From assembly GCA_963833425.1 (NCBI GenBank), contig CAWHXP010000008.1, positions 244,578 through 308,577 on the forward strand: DNA of 64,000 bases. The letters run 5' to 3'. The stretch's first letter is position 1; every line of letters begins with the position of its first letter. The notes below the pieces were generated by a model. It worked only from the letters and a program-made list of their open reading frames with translations. It was not told the DNA's origin and searched no databases. Below are positions 15,985 to 25,882 of the stretch, piece after piece. The translations under genes and the position numbers were made by a program. The DNA comes from an uncultured Methanosarcinaceae archaeon (GTDB lineage: Archaea > Halobacteriota > Methanosarcinia > Methanosarcinales > Methanosarcinaceae).

Positions 15985-17451
15985 ATGGCGAAAATCAAAT
16001 ATAAAAGTACAGTTCCTGTAAGAGAAGACCGATTGAACACCACAATCACATACTGTGGAACTGCAAGTGAGCTTGTGAATTTAACAAAGAGAAAATGTTT
16101 GAAGGTAAAAAATCGTGCATTCTCTCAGACAACTTTCTGTCAAGAGTGGCTGGCGATATTTACACTGGCAACGATAAAAGATGCAGTTATAATTACTCAT
16201 GCGCCTGTAGGATGCATCAGCTCACTGCCATTTATTAATATATTCAAGCGTTTCGGGCAAATTCTAAGGGGAGAAACACCTTTAAATGGAAAATGGATTT
16301 CTACCAACCTTACTGATACAGAGGCTATTCATGGAGGAGAAGACAAACTTAAAGAAGCAATTTTAGAGGCAGATAAAAGACACAGTCCAAATACAATATT
16401 CGTATTTTCATCATGTGTTGCTGGAATCATAGGTGAGAACATTAATGCAATAATGAAACAGGTTCAAAAAGGAGTATCTGCAACAGTGATCCCCGTATAC
16501 TGTGATGGATTCAAATCAAAAGTATGGGCATCTGGATACGATGGATCATTTCAGGGCGCTTTGAATCATCTAATTAAAAAACCTAAAAAGAGAATGGCTG
16601 ATTTAATCAATGTAATTAACCCACTTACAGTAGGAAGGCTTGATGAAGTTGAAATAGAAAGGCTTCTGGATAAATTAGGACTTAAAGCAAATTTCATCCC
16701 AAACTTTACTACTACAGAGAAGATTGGAAAATCATCTGAAGCAGCCCTTACTACAAGTATGTGTCCAACTTTCAGTGAATACTTTGCAAAATCATTAGAA
16801 GAACGTTATCATGTACCTTATACTCAAAAAATAATGCCTGTAGGTCTTGATAATACTGATTTGTGGCTTAGAGAAATTGGAAAATTCCTTGGAAAAGAGG
16901 ATGAAGTGGAAACAGTCATAAAAGCGGAGAGAGAAAGAGTTGAACCAAAAATAGAAAAACTTAGAGAAAAACTTGAGGGAAAAAGGGTATTCGTAAGTGC
17001 AGGACAATCAAGGGCAATAGGAATTCCAAATCTTCTTGCAGATTTGGGAATGGATATAGTGGGCATTACCGCATATCACTATGATGAAGTAATTTTTGAA
17101 AGCTTTGCGAATTTAGCGAAGAGATGTGGAAACTTCTGTACCAACGTTGCAAATGTACAGCCATTTGAGCAGACAAATATATTAAATAAAGAACAGCCTG
17201 ATTTTTATTTTGGTCATGTAGGAGAATCAATTTGGGCTGCAAAACAAGGATTTCCTACAGCCATGATTTACAATTTATCAGTTATCTATGCCGGCTATAA
17301 TGGCATTATATCATTTGGAAATAGAATTCTTAACTTGCTTAACAATCCCTCATTCAGTAAAAAGCTTGCTGAACATTCAAAGCCAATATATCGTGAAAGT
17401 TGGTTAAACGAAAATCCATTCAAGTACCATAAAGGGGAGGAATTAAAATGA
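15985..17451 (+). CDS. Nitrogenase component 1-like alpha subunit (group IV, NflD/MarD-like)
   Basis: FSQTTFCQE, HAPVGC, STNLT..EAIHGGEDKL, SSCVAGIIGE, SMCPTF, YHYD and FGH motifs; lacks the canonical NifD GGLRPRH/HSWDY. Confidence 0.9.
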   Translation: MAKIKYKSTVPVREDRLNTTITYCGTASELVNLTKRKCLKVKNRAFSQTTFCQEWLAIFTLATIKDAVIITHAPVGCISSLPFINIFKRFGQILRGETPLNGKWISTNLTDTEAIHGGEDKLKEAILEADKRHSPNTIFVFSSCVAGIIGENINAIMKQVQKGVSATVIPVYCDGFKSKVWASGYDGSFQGALNHLIKKPKKRMADLINVINPLTVGRLDEVEIERLLDKLGLKANFIPNFTTTEKIGKSSEAALTTSMCPTFSEYFAKSLEERYHVPYTQKIMPVGLDNTDLWLREIGKFLGKEDEVETVIKAERERVEPKIEKLREKLEGKRVFVSAGQSRAIGIPNLLADLGMDIVGITAYHYDEVIFESFANLAKRCGNFCTNVANVQPFEQTNILNKEQPDFYFGHVGESIWAAKQGFPTAMIYNLSVIYAGYNGIISFGNRILNLLNNPSFSKKLAEHSKPIYRESWLNENPFKYHKGEELK

Positions 17452-18331
17452 GCAAAATTATCGAAAGTCCTCGATTTTCATGTGCCCTCGGAGGTGCTTT
17501 GAGCACTATAACCGCAATAGAAAGCTATGTCCCGATTATTCATGCTGGACCTGGCTGTGGTGTTCAGATTTTCTATGGACAGAGCTTTGCTGGAGGTTTT
17601 AGGGGATCTGGATGGATTGGAGGAGTGAGCGTTCCAAGCACAAACACATATGAAAAAGAAGTTGTGTTTGGAGGAGAAAAACGGCTAAAAGAGCAAGTTG
17701 AAAAAACAATTGAGTTTATTGAAGGAGATAGGTATGTGGTACTTACTGGTTGTACAGCAGAACTTATTGGGGATGATGTGCGTTCAGTATTAAATGAATT
17801 TAAAGATAAGTTAGTCATCTATGCTCAAACTGCAGGTTTCAGGGGTTCAAGCTATATAGGTTATGAAATTCTGCTGGAAGCATTCATAAATCAGATAGTT
17901 GAAGAAAAGCCCAGAAAAAAAGGACTTGTAAATGTATTTGGAATAGTACCGTCTCAAGATGTATTTTGGGAAGGTAACCTTACTGAGATAGAGCGGATAC
18001 TAAATAGTATTGGTTTAGAAGTTAACACACTCTTTAATGGAAAGAAAATCGAAGACTTATCATCTGCTGTTTTAAATATTGTACTATCACCCTGGGTGGG
18101 TGTTAGAGCAGCTGAAAAGTTGAAAGAACAATTTAAAATACCTTATATTGTTAATCCGCTTCCAATAGGAGTTACTGAGACAAATTCATTCCTGGAAAAG
18201 GTTGGTACTGCATTGGGGATAGATGTTAGTGATGCAACTGCGAAGGAAGAGGAGAAAACCTACAAATCCATTGATAAAGTCGCAGATTTTGTTGTGGATC
18301 TTGATGTGCAACTTCGATTTGCAACCATCAC
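17448..18331 (+). pseudogene. Nitrogenase component 1-like beta subunit (NflK/MarK-like), 3'-truncated
   Basis: PRFSCALGG, HAGPGC, EKEVVFGGE and LTGCTAELIGDD; overlaps the alpha stop codon (ATGA). Homology ends after about 295 aa, where the antisense of the ABC binding-protein gene begins. Confidence 0.88.
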
Positions 18332-19082
18332 GTCGATCCATTGCTGGATTTCACTGTCATTGATTGCGCCAGAGTAGCTGTAATAATGGGAATTCGCCGT
18401 AGGAAGCCCAACGTTTTTTGCTGTCAATTCACCTGATTCTTTTGGATGATCATTTGACCATCTTCAGCATCTTTATATGCTTTAGTAAATGCCCGTACGT
18501 CATTAGGATGGTTCTTGATAAATCATTCTCGAGGTCCGAGCAGATACCAAGTGCACAAATCGCAATCTTTGGCTTATGCCCATTAGCCACAAGTTCCTGG
18601 AAAGTATGGTATGAGCTCGAATTGAGTACAAGCCAGTGCATGTGATATTTCATGATGTTTCCTTCGAATGGTTCAGAACCACCTTGAACTACCGCTTTCA
18701 CTTTTGCACCACTCTATAAGAGATTAGTAATAGTGTTTGGATGTCCATCAACAACATTAGTTTGCCCTGAAATGAGAGCTGTTGGTTGCAATGACCAGTC
18801 AAGGTGCCCCTGATCCTGAGAATCGATACCGCTAGCAACGAAGAAACCTTTCTGCATACCAACGTACCAAGGAGTCCCTGCGCAATCTTTGTTGACATTT
18901 GCCTTTATAGTAATATTAGGAGCTTGGGAAAGGTTCTGAAGATCTGTTTTCACTGCCGTGCCGATAGCATCCGTCTTGTTCTGGATACAACCTGTCACAA
19001 AAACTAATAACACAATGCTTATAACTACTATTCCCATTGCTAATATGTGTTTGTTGCTTGGTTTTTTGAGAATATCATTCAT
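18317..19082 (-). pseudogene. ABC transporter substrate-binding lipoprotein (SsuA/TauA/NMT1-like), frameshifted, internally deleted and 3'-truncated
   Basis: Lipobox-like FVTGC; TPWYVGMQKGFF; KIAICALGICSDLE; FIKNHPNDVRAFTKAY; WSNDHPKES...IQQWIDVMVAN, spread over shifting frames. Confidence 0.8.
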
Positions 19083-19129
19083 GATATACACCAAAACTTT
19101 TCAAAATAGAAATTAAGATCAGATTAAAA

Positions 19130-24218: not shown

Positions 24219-24956
24219 GTGAATGATGATATCTTTGAACAAATTCATAAAAGATTGACTGTAGAACAAATAATGACCCCAAAAAAAGAGTTTTATTTCC
24301 ATCCTCAGGATTCTAAATCTCATAAAGAAATAACTACTTTTCCTATCGAGAATGAAGACGGATCAATTATTAAATACTTTATCAATTATTAAATACTTTA
24401 ATAGTAAAGGTTCCACGCAGCACTATATATTACCAAATAAGATGGTTTCAAAAGACCTTGATATAATGTCTTTAATCAAAATACTGGATAGAAACTCCTT
24501 TTTCTTTGTAATCCATGATGAAATAGTAGGGATAGTTACTGTTGCAGACTTAAGAAAGGTAGCTGTAAGGATGTTCTTTTATTTGCTACTTTACAGTCAG
24601 GAAAATCAGATGAAGGTTTTTTTTAAAGAAAGACTGTCTGAAGCTGACTGTATAGAACTTGCAAAACCTAAATGCAGAATGCAAGAAAAAAGTATGAGCT
24701 TTCTGTTTTTGAAGAGTGCAGTTTTTACGATTACCTGGTAGCCTTGAAAAATTATGATGCTTTTAAACAAAAAAATGGTTTTTCAATAAGAGACATTGAG
24801 CAATTCGGTGGTCTTGATAAATTCAGAAATTGGATCATGCACCCTTCAAGAGCGGAAGTCAAAGTGAAAATGGACTTTGAAATTGATTACAACCATTACT
24901 TATTCAAGCAGCTTGATAGAATCCAGAAGCTAGAAATATTATTGAAAAATAGCTGA
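24219..24956 (+). pseudogene. CBS-domain + HEPN (Swt1-like) fusion protein, broken by a 19-bp duplication and a 1-nt deletion
   Basis: GTG start behind GGTGG; LTVEQIMTP and IVGIVTVADL (CBS-like); VRMFFYLL...E and RNWIMH (HEPN Rx4H). Confidence 0.65.
24362..24399. repeat. 19-bp tandem duplication ATCAATTATTAAATACTTT x2
   Basis: Exact repeat that frameshifts the CBS-HEPN gene. Confidence 0.9.
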
Positions 24957-25119
24957 GACTTGTTCAATCTCAAAAACATTTCTGCAAAAAAATTAAAAAA
25001 TTTGTAGTTACGTGCCTGAGATGAGCTTCGTGCTATTCAATGACTTTGAAACTGTGAATTCATTTCAGGATACAACAGAATCGAAGCTTGCTTGAAAGAT
25101 ACCTAATCCTCCATAGATT

Positions 25120-25882
25120 AATCCCACTTGTTGTAGACAACACGAGTGCTGTGGGCTTGTTCAGCCTATTGATCATGGAGCAGATATCGTTGTGCATTCT
25201 GTAACCAAATTTATCGGTGGGCATGGAAATTCAATCGGTGGTTCTATAGTCGATTCCGGAAAATTCTCTTGGAACAATGGCAAGTTTCCAGAATTAACAG
25301 ATCCTGATCCCAGTTATCACGGCTTGAAATACTGGGATACGTTTCCAGAATTTCCGGGTCTTGATAATGTAGCATTCATTTTTAAAGTACGGTTGCAACT
25401 TCTTAGGGACATAGGTGCTGCTCTTTCCCCCTTTAATGCTTTTCTATTACTTCAGGGGCTTGAAACACTGCGCCTGAGATACAGAGACACTCAGATAACG
25501 CCCTCAAGGTAGCGAAATTCCTTTCAAACCATCCAAAAGTCTCATGGGTTAATTATCCAGGTTTACCGGATCATCCAAGTCATGGGCTTGCATCCAAATA
25601 TCTTATAGGTGGTTATGGTGTATTGATAGGTTTTTGGTGTGAAAGGCGGTATAGAAGCAGGTAAAAGCTTTATAAACAATCTAAAGCTGTTTCCACATGT
25701 TGCCAACATAGAGATTCCAAAAGTCTTGTCATTCATCTTGCAACTACCACACACCAGCAGCTAACCCCAACTGAGCAAGAGGCAACAGGCGTTACGCCAG
25801 ATTACATACGCCTTTCCATTATAGTATTGAGGATGTAGATGATATGATCTCAGATCTTGAACAAGCTCTTGAAAAAGTTTGA
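25120..25882 (+). pseudogene. metY: O-acetylhomoserine aminocarboxypropyltransferase/sulfhydrylase (MetY/MET17-like), 5'-truncated and frameshifted
   Basis: [25 protein letters not shown] (PLP lysine), [27 protein letters not shown] and [10 protein letters not shown]. Confidence 0.88.

Follow-up and report, generated by a model that had tools for sequence, protein, structure and literature searches.

A nitrogenase-like DK gene pair in a decaying locus of a Methanosarcinaceae archaeon, a probable importer-coupled organosulfur reductase

The reductive cleavage of C-S bonds by nitrogenase-like enzymes is a recent discovery that has so far been tested only in bacteria, with activity proven only for Group IV-C. 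Here we describe a pair of genes for the D and K subunits of a nitrogenase-like protein (from here: nflD and nflK) in 64,000 nt of DNA from an uncultured Methanosarcinaceae archaeon (GenBank assembly GCA_963833425.1, contig CAWHXP010000008.1, positions 244,578 to 308,577; this whole stretch is called the window). The pair probably belongs to an uncharacterised organosulfur reductase that is coupled to an importer and serves a Methanosarcina-like methanogen as an accessory module for scavenging sulfur; the copy described here is decaying and inactive.

The closest described system is the methylthio-alkane reductase (MAR), encoded by marBHDK. According to the available text on the structure of this enzyme, C66, C91 and C158 of MarD are P-cluster cysteines, C270 and H429 are ligands of the [Fe8S9C] cluster, and the Arg428-His429 pair on an extended Loop I is a proposed hallmark of MAR (PMC12552129). 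MAR activity was reported for 15 of the 20 Group IV-C systems tried, in a study whose sequence set, as far as its available text goes, was drawn from bacterial genomes (PMC13753814). In its available part, a review of these groups gives functions only for Group IV-A, B, C and F (PMC13474568).

Pairs of D and K genes without their own H or B genes have been described in purple bacteria, namely NflDK3 of R. palustris (RPA2363-64) and NflDK of R. rubrum. Sulfate limitation induces these pairs, whose neighbours are genes for a methionine transporter and for O-acetylhomoserine sulfhydrylase, and in the available portion of the preprint they were inactive on the volatile sulfides tried (bioRxiv 10.64898/2026.08.20.746119). 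Our search of open-access papers and preprints found no such DK pairs described in methanogens, CfbCD aside. On the side of regulation, short polycysteine open reading frames (ORFs) of mycobacteria have been presented, in the text available, as cysteine-responsive attenuators upstream of sulfur-metabolism genes (bioRxiv 10.1101/834739), and our search of the literature on such leaders turned up only bacterial cases.

The DK pair and the adjoining transporter

The central genes of the locus, with ABC standing for ATP-binding cassette, are:

15985..17451, + strand: nflD-like alpha subunit, a nitrogenase component-1 protein, intact, 488 aa
17448..18332, + strand: nflK-like beta subunit, first 295 of about 422 codons left, about 127 lost
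18332..18333: rearrangement breakpoint, where the truncated nflK meets the 3′ part of the binding-protein gene tail-to-tail
18317..19094, - strand: SsuA/NMT1-family ABC substrate-binding lipoprotein, pseudogene, family assigned from intact orthologs
19130..19951, - strand: ABC permease, NitT/TauT family, intact, 273 aa
20001..20885, - strand: ABC ATPase, TauB/NtrCD/SaoA type, intact, 294 aa

The D protein matches the Pfam family Oxidored_nitro (PF00148) over its full length (profile positions 1-398 of 399, E 6.4e-85). A first-pass annotation, made from the letters of the DNA, had described this subunit as intact and as keeping three P-cluster cysteines as well as the cofactor Cys and His. All motifs that it quoted are present (F51-C52-Q53-E54, V75-G76-C77, S142-S143-C144, M259-C260-P261-T262 and F409-G410-H411), and they align with the MarD ligands: in a HMMER alignment to R. 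rubrum MarD (PDB chain 9fmg_A), C52, C77 and C144 correspond to C66, C91 and C158, and C260 and H411 to C270 and H429. In addition, W181 and H365 match MarD W195 and H375. The residue numbers of this alignment agree with those in the available text of the structure paper (PMC12552129). On the substrate side, MarD C73/Q74 are replaced by F59/T60, H194 by V180, F199 by Y185 and R428 by G410. The NifD pocket set of V70, Q191 and H195, too, is absent as had been claimed, with W181 and Y185 at the positions of the latter two. Of the 26 sequences of the methanogen clade to which D belongs, all keep C52, C77, C144, C260, W181 and H365, and 24 keep H411.

D reaches the cut-off of none of the 19 NCBIfam families listed. 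Its scores are 184 bits for nitrogenase alpha (cut-off 486), 182 for NifE (505), 165 for NifD (654) and 40 for the CfbD model TIGR03282 (268); CfbD is, furthermore, a single-subunit protein, whereas a separate K is present here. With scores so far below the curated cut-offs, the assignment to a Group IV nitrogenase-like DK pair that is not NifDK, NifEN or CfbD is upheld. The best solved relative of D is chain A of 9FMG/9D9U (MarD) with 288 bits, followed by 9p1x_A (deposited as a nitrogenase alpha chain) with 141 bits, and the matches to Clostridium pasteurianum NifD and to the best NifE reach 129 and 84 bits, respectively. An AlphaFold model of D built on 27 relatives (predicted local distance difference test 83.9, predicted template modelling score 0.85) fits 9fmg_A best, with a template modelling (TM) score of 0.87/0.91, a root-mean-square deviation of 2.3 Å and 34 % identity, compared with TM scores of 0.67-0.76 for NifD chains. 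The entry named by the fold search, 9FMG, is the methylthio-alkane reductase complex of Rhodospirillum rubrum.

For the comparison with related loci, one genome per species was scanned for D relatives, which returned 79 loci, numbered with the prefix L; the six Methanosarcina loci are the window plus L001, L002, L003, L004 and L007. The K ORF, which the D ORF overlaps by 4 nt, matches Oxidored_nitro over profile positions 1-265 of 399 only, and residues 1-304 of the 422-aa K ortholog from L007 are covered in the window by tblastn. The observation that the beta-like subunit keeps three cysteines proved correct, since C12, C37 and C102 correspond to MarK C32, C56 and C121 in an alignment made with the intact ortholog, which itself scores 310 bits to MarK versus 89 for the next match; the gene is also truncated, a fact that had not been stated outright. 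Its open frame continues into foreign sequence up to 18377 (ORF 17448-18377, 309 aa), and no reading frame in the window carries the K protein on past the cut. All 5 other Methanosarcina loci align by blastn at 82-83 % nucleotide identity from about 15700 to exactly 18332 and then stop, and in a base-by-base comparison with L007 and L004 the identity collapses after 18332.

The sulfonate-type ABC transporter reported beside the pair was recovered, with an intact permease and ATPase of the NitT/TauT type and a binding-protein gene that is a pseudogene. The latter starts with a 126-aa lipoprotein ORF (18714-19094, - strand), which is followed after codon 126 by an in-frame TAG at 18714-18716 (- strand). 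Residues 1-194, 263-289 and 290-340 of a Methanoregula relative align to the pseudogene in three frames; about 70 internal residues and the C-terminal end are gone. TAG is a codon that Methanosarcina can read as pyrrolysine, but a rescue by read-through is ruled out by the further frameshifts and deletions. The window permease is 64 % identical to the DK-linked permease of L008, the ATPase 69 % to that of L006 and the binding-protein remnant 68 % to the DK-linked substrate-binding protein (SBP) of non-Methanosarcina methanogen loci. Because of these identities, the window transporter is taken to be the same one as the DK-linked importer elsewhere, in a different orientation. In terms of family models, the SBP orthologs reach 60-85 bits to SsuA_fam (cut-off 163.5), the permease 132 bits to SaoP, 102 to TauC and 98 to SsuC, and the ATPase 244 bits to TauB (cut-off 357).

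Clade position and neighbours of related genes

A FastTree tree was computed from 267 D-type sequences, consisting of window D, every D-type ORF in the 79 loci with a length of 400 aa or more, representatives of 400-600 aa and 37 picked relatives; shorter D fragments were dropped. In addition, 102 chosen rows were used for IQ-TREE under LG+G4 with the Shimodaira-Hasegawa-like approximate likelihood ratio test (SH-aLRT). Window D falls into a methanogen clade with an SH-aLRT value of 92, within which two Peptococcaceae-labelled contigs are nested. A clade from bacterial metagenome-assembled genomes (MAGs) groups beside the methanogen clade in FastTree with weak support (0.54) and is a near neighbour, not the direct sister, in IQ-TREE.

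R. rubrum MarD lies outside the tree rows, and its position was proxied by bit scores to 9fmg_A:

Clostridium ljungdahlii D (L045): 491 bits
Sporomusa D (L052): 386 bits
window D: 288 bits
P0132: 238 bits
L062: 221 bits
L053: 218 bits
P0133: 204 bits

With these low scores, P0132, L053, L062 and P0133 were rejected as MarD relatives. The superclade of L045 and L052 excludes the clade of the window (FastTree 1.0, SH-aLRT 100). Judged by these trees and scores, the window protein is placed outside the MarD clade (Group IV-C), in a separate methanogen-MAG clade. A supplementary table lists Pelosinus under Group C and Paenibacillus under Group A, and Fibrobacter succinogenes with both C and E systems (PMC13753814); the L045 clade is consistent with Group IV-C and its neighbour clade with Group IV-A. 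A search with P0052, a Fibrobacteraceae relative, gave no cultured-strain match above 40 % identity, and the closer named matches were all MAGs.

Two features unite the L045/L052 superclade, the 'RH' pair that includes the His ligand and an insertion that follows the equivalent of H375; RH is found in 5 of 5 aligned rows from the MarD-like and neighbouring clades. Window D has G410-H411 instead of RH, its loop is one residue shorter, and there is no insertion after H365. Hence, the earlier description of the protein as Mar-like stands in that MarD is the nearest solved relative, and fails in that phylogeny and bit score place D outside Group IV-C; as to hallmark features, both the Arg-His pair and the MarD-clade insertion are absent from it.

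Relatives of D at 60-89 % identity were found in Methanosarcina, Methanobacterium, Methanobrevibacter, Methanoregula and Methanospirillum, almost all of them from MAGs or metagenomes, followed by Methanoperedenaceae at 52 % and a set of bacterial MAG proteins at 46-48 %. For the neighbour analysis, the ORFs of the 79 loci were clustered and representatives scanned against Pfam and NCBIfam. SsuA/NMT1-family SBP genes adjoin DK in 6 of 10 non-Methanosarcina methanogen loci (L006, L008, L009, L013, L014 and L019), most of which also have permease and ATPase genes. Two further loci on short contigs, L005 and L016, have a radical-SAM gene and a NifX-like gene upstream; the termite-gut loci L011 and L012 have neither SBP genes nor this pair. 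An H gene occurs in L003, L006, L010 and L018 among the loci of the clade.

In three of the five loci that represent the bacterial sister clade (L017, L020 and L022), the gene immediately before D is NifB-like; it scores 254 bits to the nifB model and is without a NifX domain. MetY, CysK and an amino-acid permease each occur in 3/5 of these loci. Both L017 and L022 add a cysteine desulfurase (SufS), an SrpI-type encapsulin and a ThiF-rhodanese protein, and a serine-acetyltransferase-like gene is found in L017 as well. Of all 79 loci, 29 have SsuA-family binding-protein genes and 14 have MetY, so the sulfur link is a property of the wider family and holds for the clade. The sulfur-scavenging neighbourhood suggested by the first-pass annotation is thus real, and with its SBP, MetY and CysK neighbours it is stronger in the orthologous loci than in the window.

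Individual loci of the set showed further gene arrangements. The Methanobacterium MAG contig L006 (21.5 kb) carries, mostly on one strand, three DK pairs of two clades with one NifH-like gene, and also an SsuABC-like importer, an HdrD-like CCG/Fer4 protein, CysK and a serine-acetyltransferase-like (CysE) gene; it looks like a sulfur island. The contigs L010 and L018, labelled Desulfotomaculum and Peptococcaceae, encode D proteins 67-68 % identical to that of the window, nested in the methanogen clade, with genes for HydE-like or BioB-like radical SAM, NifX-like and NifH-like proteins upstream; their nesting reflects either a binning error or a gene transfer that links methanogens with Firmicutes. 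A "variant radical SAM" protein (NF045502) that is not NifB-like is encoded near DK in L005, L008, L016 and L019, the L019 copy scoring 341 bits against a cut-off of 125.

A cysteine-ending upstream reading frame and the decay of the locus

A small upstream ORF (uORF) precedes nflD in the window and in its Methanosarcina relatives:

15717..15809, + strand: upstream small ORF of 30 codons, ending with four Cys codons and TGA, 175 nt before nflD; encodes MNLKGLKHRKSANPLISRLIKFFPSSCCCC
uORF in relatives: L001 10-96; L002 5631-5720; L003 9733-9819; L004 7671-7760; L007 9731-9820

The uORF is kept in 6/6 Methanosarcina loci with a length of 28-30 codons and an end of 2-4 Cys codons plus TGA. At these six loci the distance to nflD is 175-182 nt, and a tract of 5-7 T lies 25-35 nt past the uORF stop. 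The middle of the uORF is poorly conserved, yet its frame is maintained: gaps are a multiple of 3 in 5/5 cases inside the uORF versus 6/29 in the spacer, and the nucleotide identity is 0.70 in the uORF versus 0.58 in the spacer. Within 1.32 Mb (loci and window, both strands), there are 26 ATG-started ORFs of 12-60 codons that end with at least 2 Cys codons, and 6 of these are the uORF. In the window, where the uORF region spans 15691-15809, a 21-nt tandem duplication doubled the uORF start, yielding an in-frame alternative ATG at 15696. RNAalifold detected no conserved hairpin in the spacer between uORF and nflD (-1.4 kcal/mol, 0 compensatory pairs), and no Cys-ending small ORFs were found upstream of the non-Methanosarcina loci.

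The uORF is a candidate cysteine-sensing leader, since repeated codons for the end-product amino acid in front of a sulfur-acquisition gene are what marks such leaders. That stalling on the uORF would mask a T-rich termination region in this archaeon is speculation.

Other features of the region are the following:

23205..23663, - strand: YHS-domain protein with a lipoprotein-like signal, a neighbour only
24219..24953, + strand: CBS-domain pseudogene in three frames, first break at a tandem duplication
25150..25883, + strand: metY (O-acetylhomoserine sulfhydrylase) remnant, residues 187-431 of 431, frameshifted
6703-9057, + strand: sulfatase, 784 aa, about 6.9 kb upstream of D

The MetY remnant had been recognised correctly: compared with an intact relative, it lacks the first 186 codons, and its reading frame is shifted. 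The CBS gene first loses its frame at a perfect tandem duplication of 19 nt (24362-24399). Together with the truncated nflK and the broken binding-protein gene, these lesions agree with the earlier view of a locus in decay. With nflK about 127 codons short, the binding-protein gene wrecked and metY a stub, the system cannot work in this strain. Relaxed selection on D was considered and not seen: dN/dS, the ratio of nonsynonymous to synonymous rates, against orthologs was 0.07-0.15 for D, which is the range of the other pairs, and 0.09-0.17 for the K remnant. As dN/dS is no higher than among the orthologs, the damage is recent relative to their divergence.

An arylsulfatase about 7 kb upstream had been counted among the neighbours of the pair. 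The gene is present, but it is not conserved beside the orthologs, and its link to DK is unproven because no ORF from the 79 loci matches the region 6703-9057. Near it, an anaerobic sulfatase maturase gene (2746-3915, - strand) was matched by models only from about position 42-67 on and is without the N-terminal region of the radical-SAM Cys motif; it is probably also a pseudogene.

Between the divergent YHS and CBS genes, a 42-nt inverted repeat (23719-23760 and 23874-23915; 88 % complementary, 113 nt apart) was noticed. In L003, a Methanosarcinales MAG, a second, different nflH-D-K cluster (2365-7909; its D is 40 % identical to window D) lies between homologs of the YHS and CBS genes; in the window the two genes are adjacent and divergent, without such a cluster between them. 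We rejected a simple deletion of nflHDK from an arrangement as in L003, since YHS and CBS face each other there but point apart in the window.

The window as a whole is AT-rich (GC content 0.30-0.43) with a low coding density, several broken genes and insertion sequence (IS) fragments. Its housekeeping DHH phosphoesterase (52804-54141) has only Methanosarcina among its named relatives, at 72-77 % identity, which marks the host as a Methanosarcina-like methanogen. NifH-, NifB- and NifX-like sequences were not detected in the 64 kb by tblastn with seven queries (E <= 1e-3) or Pfam scans, as the first reading had stated for nifH and nifB; marB and marH, the other members of the MarDK gene set, were both absent from the window, and an Rfam search of it gave zero matches. 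Long AT-rich stretches without detectable genes extend over 20886-23200 and 25884-30100. In a Pfam scan of 48 stop-to-stop frames from ORF-poor stretches, only anSME and a CMD-family fragment (76 aa, 27549-27776) were above cut-off, with Rpb5_C as the single sub-threshold match. Transposase fragments lie at 30540-31052 and 39428-39742. An AI-2E family transporter gene at 1677-2586 (- strand) consists of two overlapping ORFs that match profile positions 230-325 and 34-234 and is probably frameshifted; an intact paralog is located at 9797-10879.

Candidate functions and comparison with known systems

Of the two options named by the first-pass annotation, the evidence is best matched by a new C-S reductase. 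The data above show what the parts are, that the ligands are conserved, that the clade is separate, that certain neighbours recur and that the genes decay, while we infer the cofactor content, the role in sulfur metabolism, the class of substrate and the electron donor of the following scheme. Together, intact NflD and NflK would make up the catalytic component of a nitrogenase-like reductase of the two-component type, with the architecture of MarDK. Its iron protein, NifH-like, ATP-dependent and encoded at another site, would pass electrons to a P-type cluster between D and K, for which each subunit supplies three Cys. This cluster would hand them on to a NifB-derived [Fe8S9C]-type carbide cluster on D, anchored by C260 and H411; methanogens carry a nifB homolog, according to the available part of a review (PMC13474568). 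A polar organosulfur substrate would enter via the linked SsuA-type ABC importer and have its C-S bond reductively cleaved at the carbide cluster, and the sulfur product (thiol, sulfide or sulfite) would flow into methionine and cysteine synthesis via MetY- and CysK-type enzymes. A polar, imported substrate is preferred over volatile sulfides because of the SsuA-type importer and the amino-acid permease of the sister clade, and a thiol or sulfide as product because MetY and CysK stand beside the sister-clade genes.

Several observations weigh against an importer-coupled organosulfur reductase. The deep branches around the clade are weak, with SH-aLRT values of 38-55. Asp replaces the His ligand in 12/12 sequences of the bacterial sister clade, and even close relatives may therefore bind the cofactor differently. 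Importer coupling is not universal, as the 5 other Methanosarcina loci carry DK without the transporter; in the window the transporter is convergent and joined to K by the rearrangement, unlike the operon order elsewhere. The SBP, permease and ATPase all fall below every NCBIfam equivalog cut-off, though their best matches are in the right families, and an H or B partner is missing within the window. Finally, the available text reports no MAR activity for the tested systems of Group IV-A, D, E and F, except for one methane value in IV-A (PMC13753814). The lack of MAR activity outside IV-C says nothing positive on what such enzymes do.

The reading first proposed, a true methylthio-alkane reductase that converts dimethyl sulfide, methylthioethanol or similar compounds to methanethiol and a hydrocarbon, is in our view improbable. 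It draws on MarDK as the nearest solved structure, on the retention of all eight metal ligands plus the equivalents of MarD W195 and H375, and on MetY, which uses methanethiol and is found in 3/5 sister-clade loci and as a stub in the window. However, D lies outside the MarD clade, from which it is excluded at an SH-aLRT of 100, with 288 bits to MarD compared with 491 for L045 and 386 for L052; it has G-H for the RH pair, no insertion after the H375 equivalent and a different pocket (F59/T60, V180, Y185). An ABC importer would, moreover, be needless for volatile sulfides, and Group IV-C is, as far as the available text goes, the only one with MAR activity (PMC13753814).

We give similarly little credence to a sulfonate reductase resembling the isethionate reductase IsrBHDK, which would desulfonate a substrate imported by an SsuABC-like system and release sulfite. 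A sulfite product is awkward for most methanogens. The SBPs do fall into the SsuA/TauA family, and a variant radical SAM gene that is not NifB occurs at the methanogen loci L005, L008, L016 and L019. In R. capsulatus, SsuABC is needed for isethionate use and is encoded with isrBHDK, sufS, a serine acetyltransferase and a rhodanese, as given in the available text (PMC11423573); the gene sets of L017 and L006 are comparable to this region. Yet IsrD is described, in the part of the review available, as being without the P-cluster and cofactor ligands (PMC13474568), whereas window D keeps all of them, and the tree clade without these Cys (n=47) is far from that of the window.

Least probable of all is a role outside sulfur metabolism, as a cofactor-assembly scaffold or a nitrogen or tetrapyrrole reductase with sulfur genes nearby by chance: the full nitrogenase-type ligand set, the 5/5 other Methanosarcina loci with DK alone and Group IV-A relatives implicated in N2 fixation in the available review text (PMC13474568) would suit it, but sulfur-assimilation and SsuA-type genes recur in independent lineages (SsuA-family 29/79, MetY 14/79), the NifD substrate residues are absent, and the NifE, NifD and CfbD scores are far below their cut-offs.

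If the organosulfur reductase reading applies, a distinct methanogen clade would extend anaerobic organosulfur scavenging to archaea. A clade with full ligands, its own pocket and a tie to an importer would offer a new substrate specificity to compare with MarDK. It would matter for how sulfur is supplied in wetlands and peat, and possibly for the hydrocarbons released there; several related MAG records are labelled peat- or wetland-like. A bolder version, to which we assign a slim though somewhat better chance than to the rivals above, holds that the methanogen clade is a new subgroup that cleaves the C-S bond of imported organosulfur compounds on a carbide cluster in sulfide-poor habitats and that, in Methanosarcina, a leader reading the supply of cysteinyl-tRNA sets its expression. 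The Cys-ending uORF is a candidate for ribosome-mediated amino-acid sensing in archaea and, if this were true, no leader peptide of this amino-acid-sensing kind would have been reported from archaea before it.

Compared with known leaders, the uORF resembles the mycobacterial polycysteine ORFs in being short, in having its Cys codons in a row and in standing just before sulfur genes. It differs in its archaeal host, in the Cys run at the very end, and in a spacer of 175-182 nt that has a T-rich tract and no conserved hairpin.

For the enzyme, IsrBHDK (Group IV-F; R. capsulatus) is likewise nitrogenase-like, serves anaerobic sulfur acquisition, depends on an SsuABC-type importer and has sufS, serine acetyltransferase and rhodanese genes around it, by the available description (PMC11423573). 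It differs, in a comparison made by description, in the lack of P-cluster and cofactor ligands in IsrD, given in the available review text (PMC13474568) and kept in window D, and in a maturase that is BciD-like, not NifB-like. The purple-bacterial DK-only pairs, also compared by description, share with the window a DK pair without its own H or B and sulfur-gene neighbours, but NflDK3 is, by the available text, 52-56 % identical to MarDK1 and thus much closer to Mar than the window protein. MarBHDK (Group IV-C; R. rubrum, PDB 9FMG and 9D9U) is the best sequence and fold match, and has in common with the window pair the two-subunit D/K architecture, the six P-cluster Cys, the Cys and His ligands of an [Fe8S9C]-type cluster, here predicted, the equivalents of W195 and H375 and a setting among sulfur-assimilation genes. 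It is set apart from window D by the latter's separate clade, 34 % identity to 9fmg_A, lack of an Arg beside the His ligand and of the insertion after the H375 equivalent, and pocket of F59/T60, V180 and Y185, and the window locus is without marB and marH, tied to an ABC importer and archaeal.

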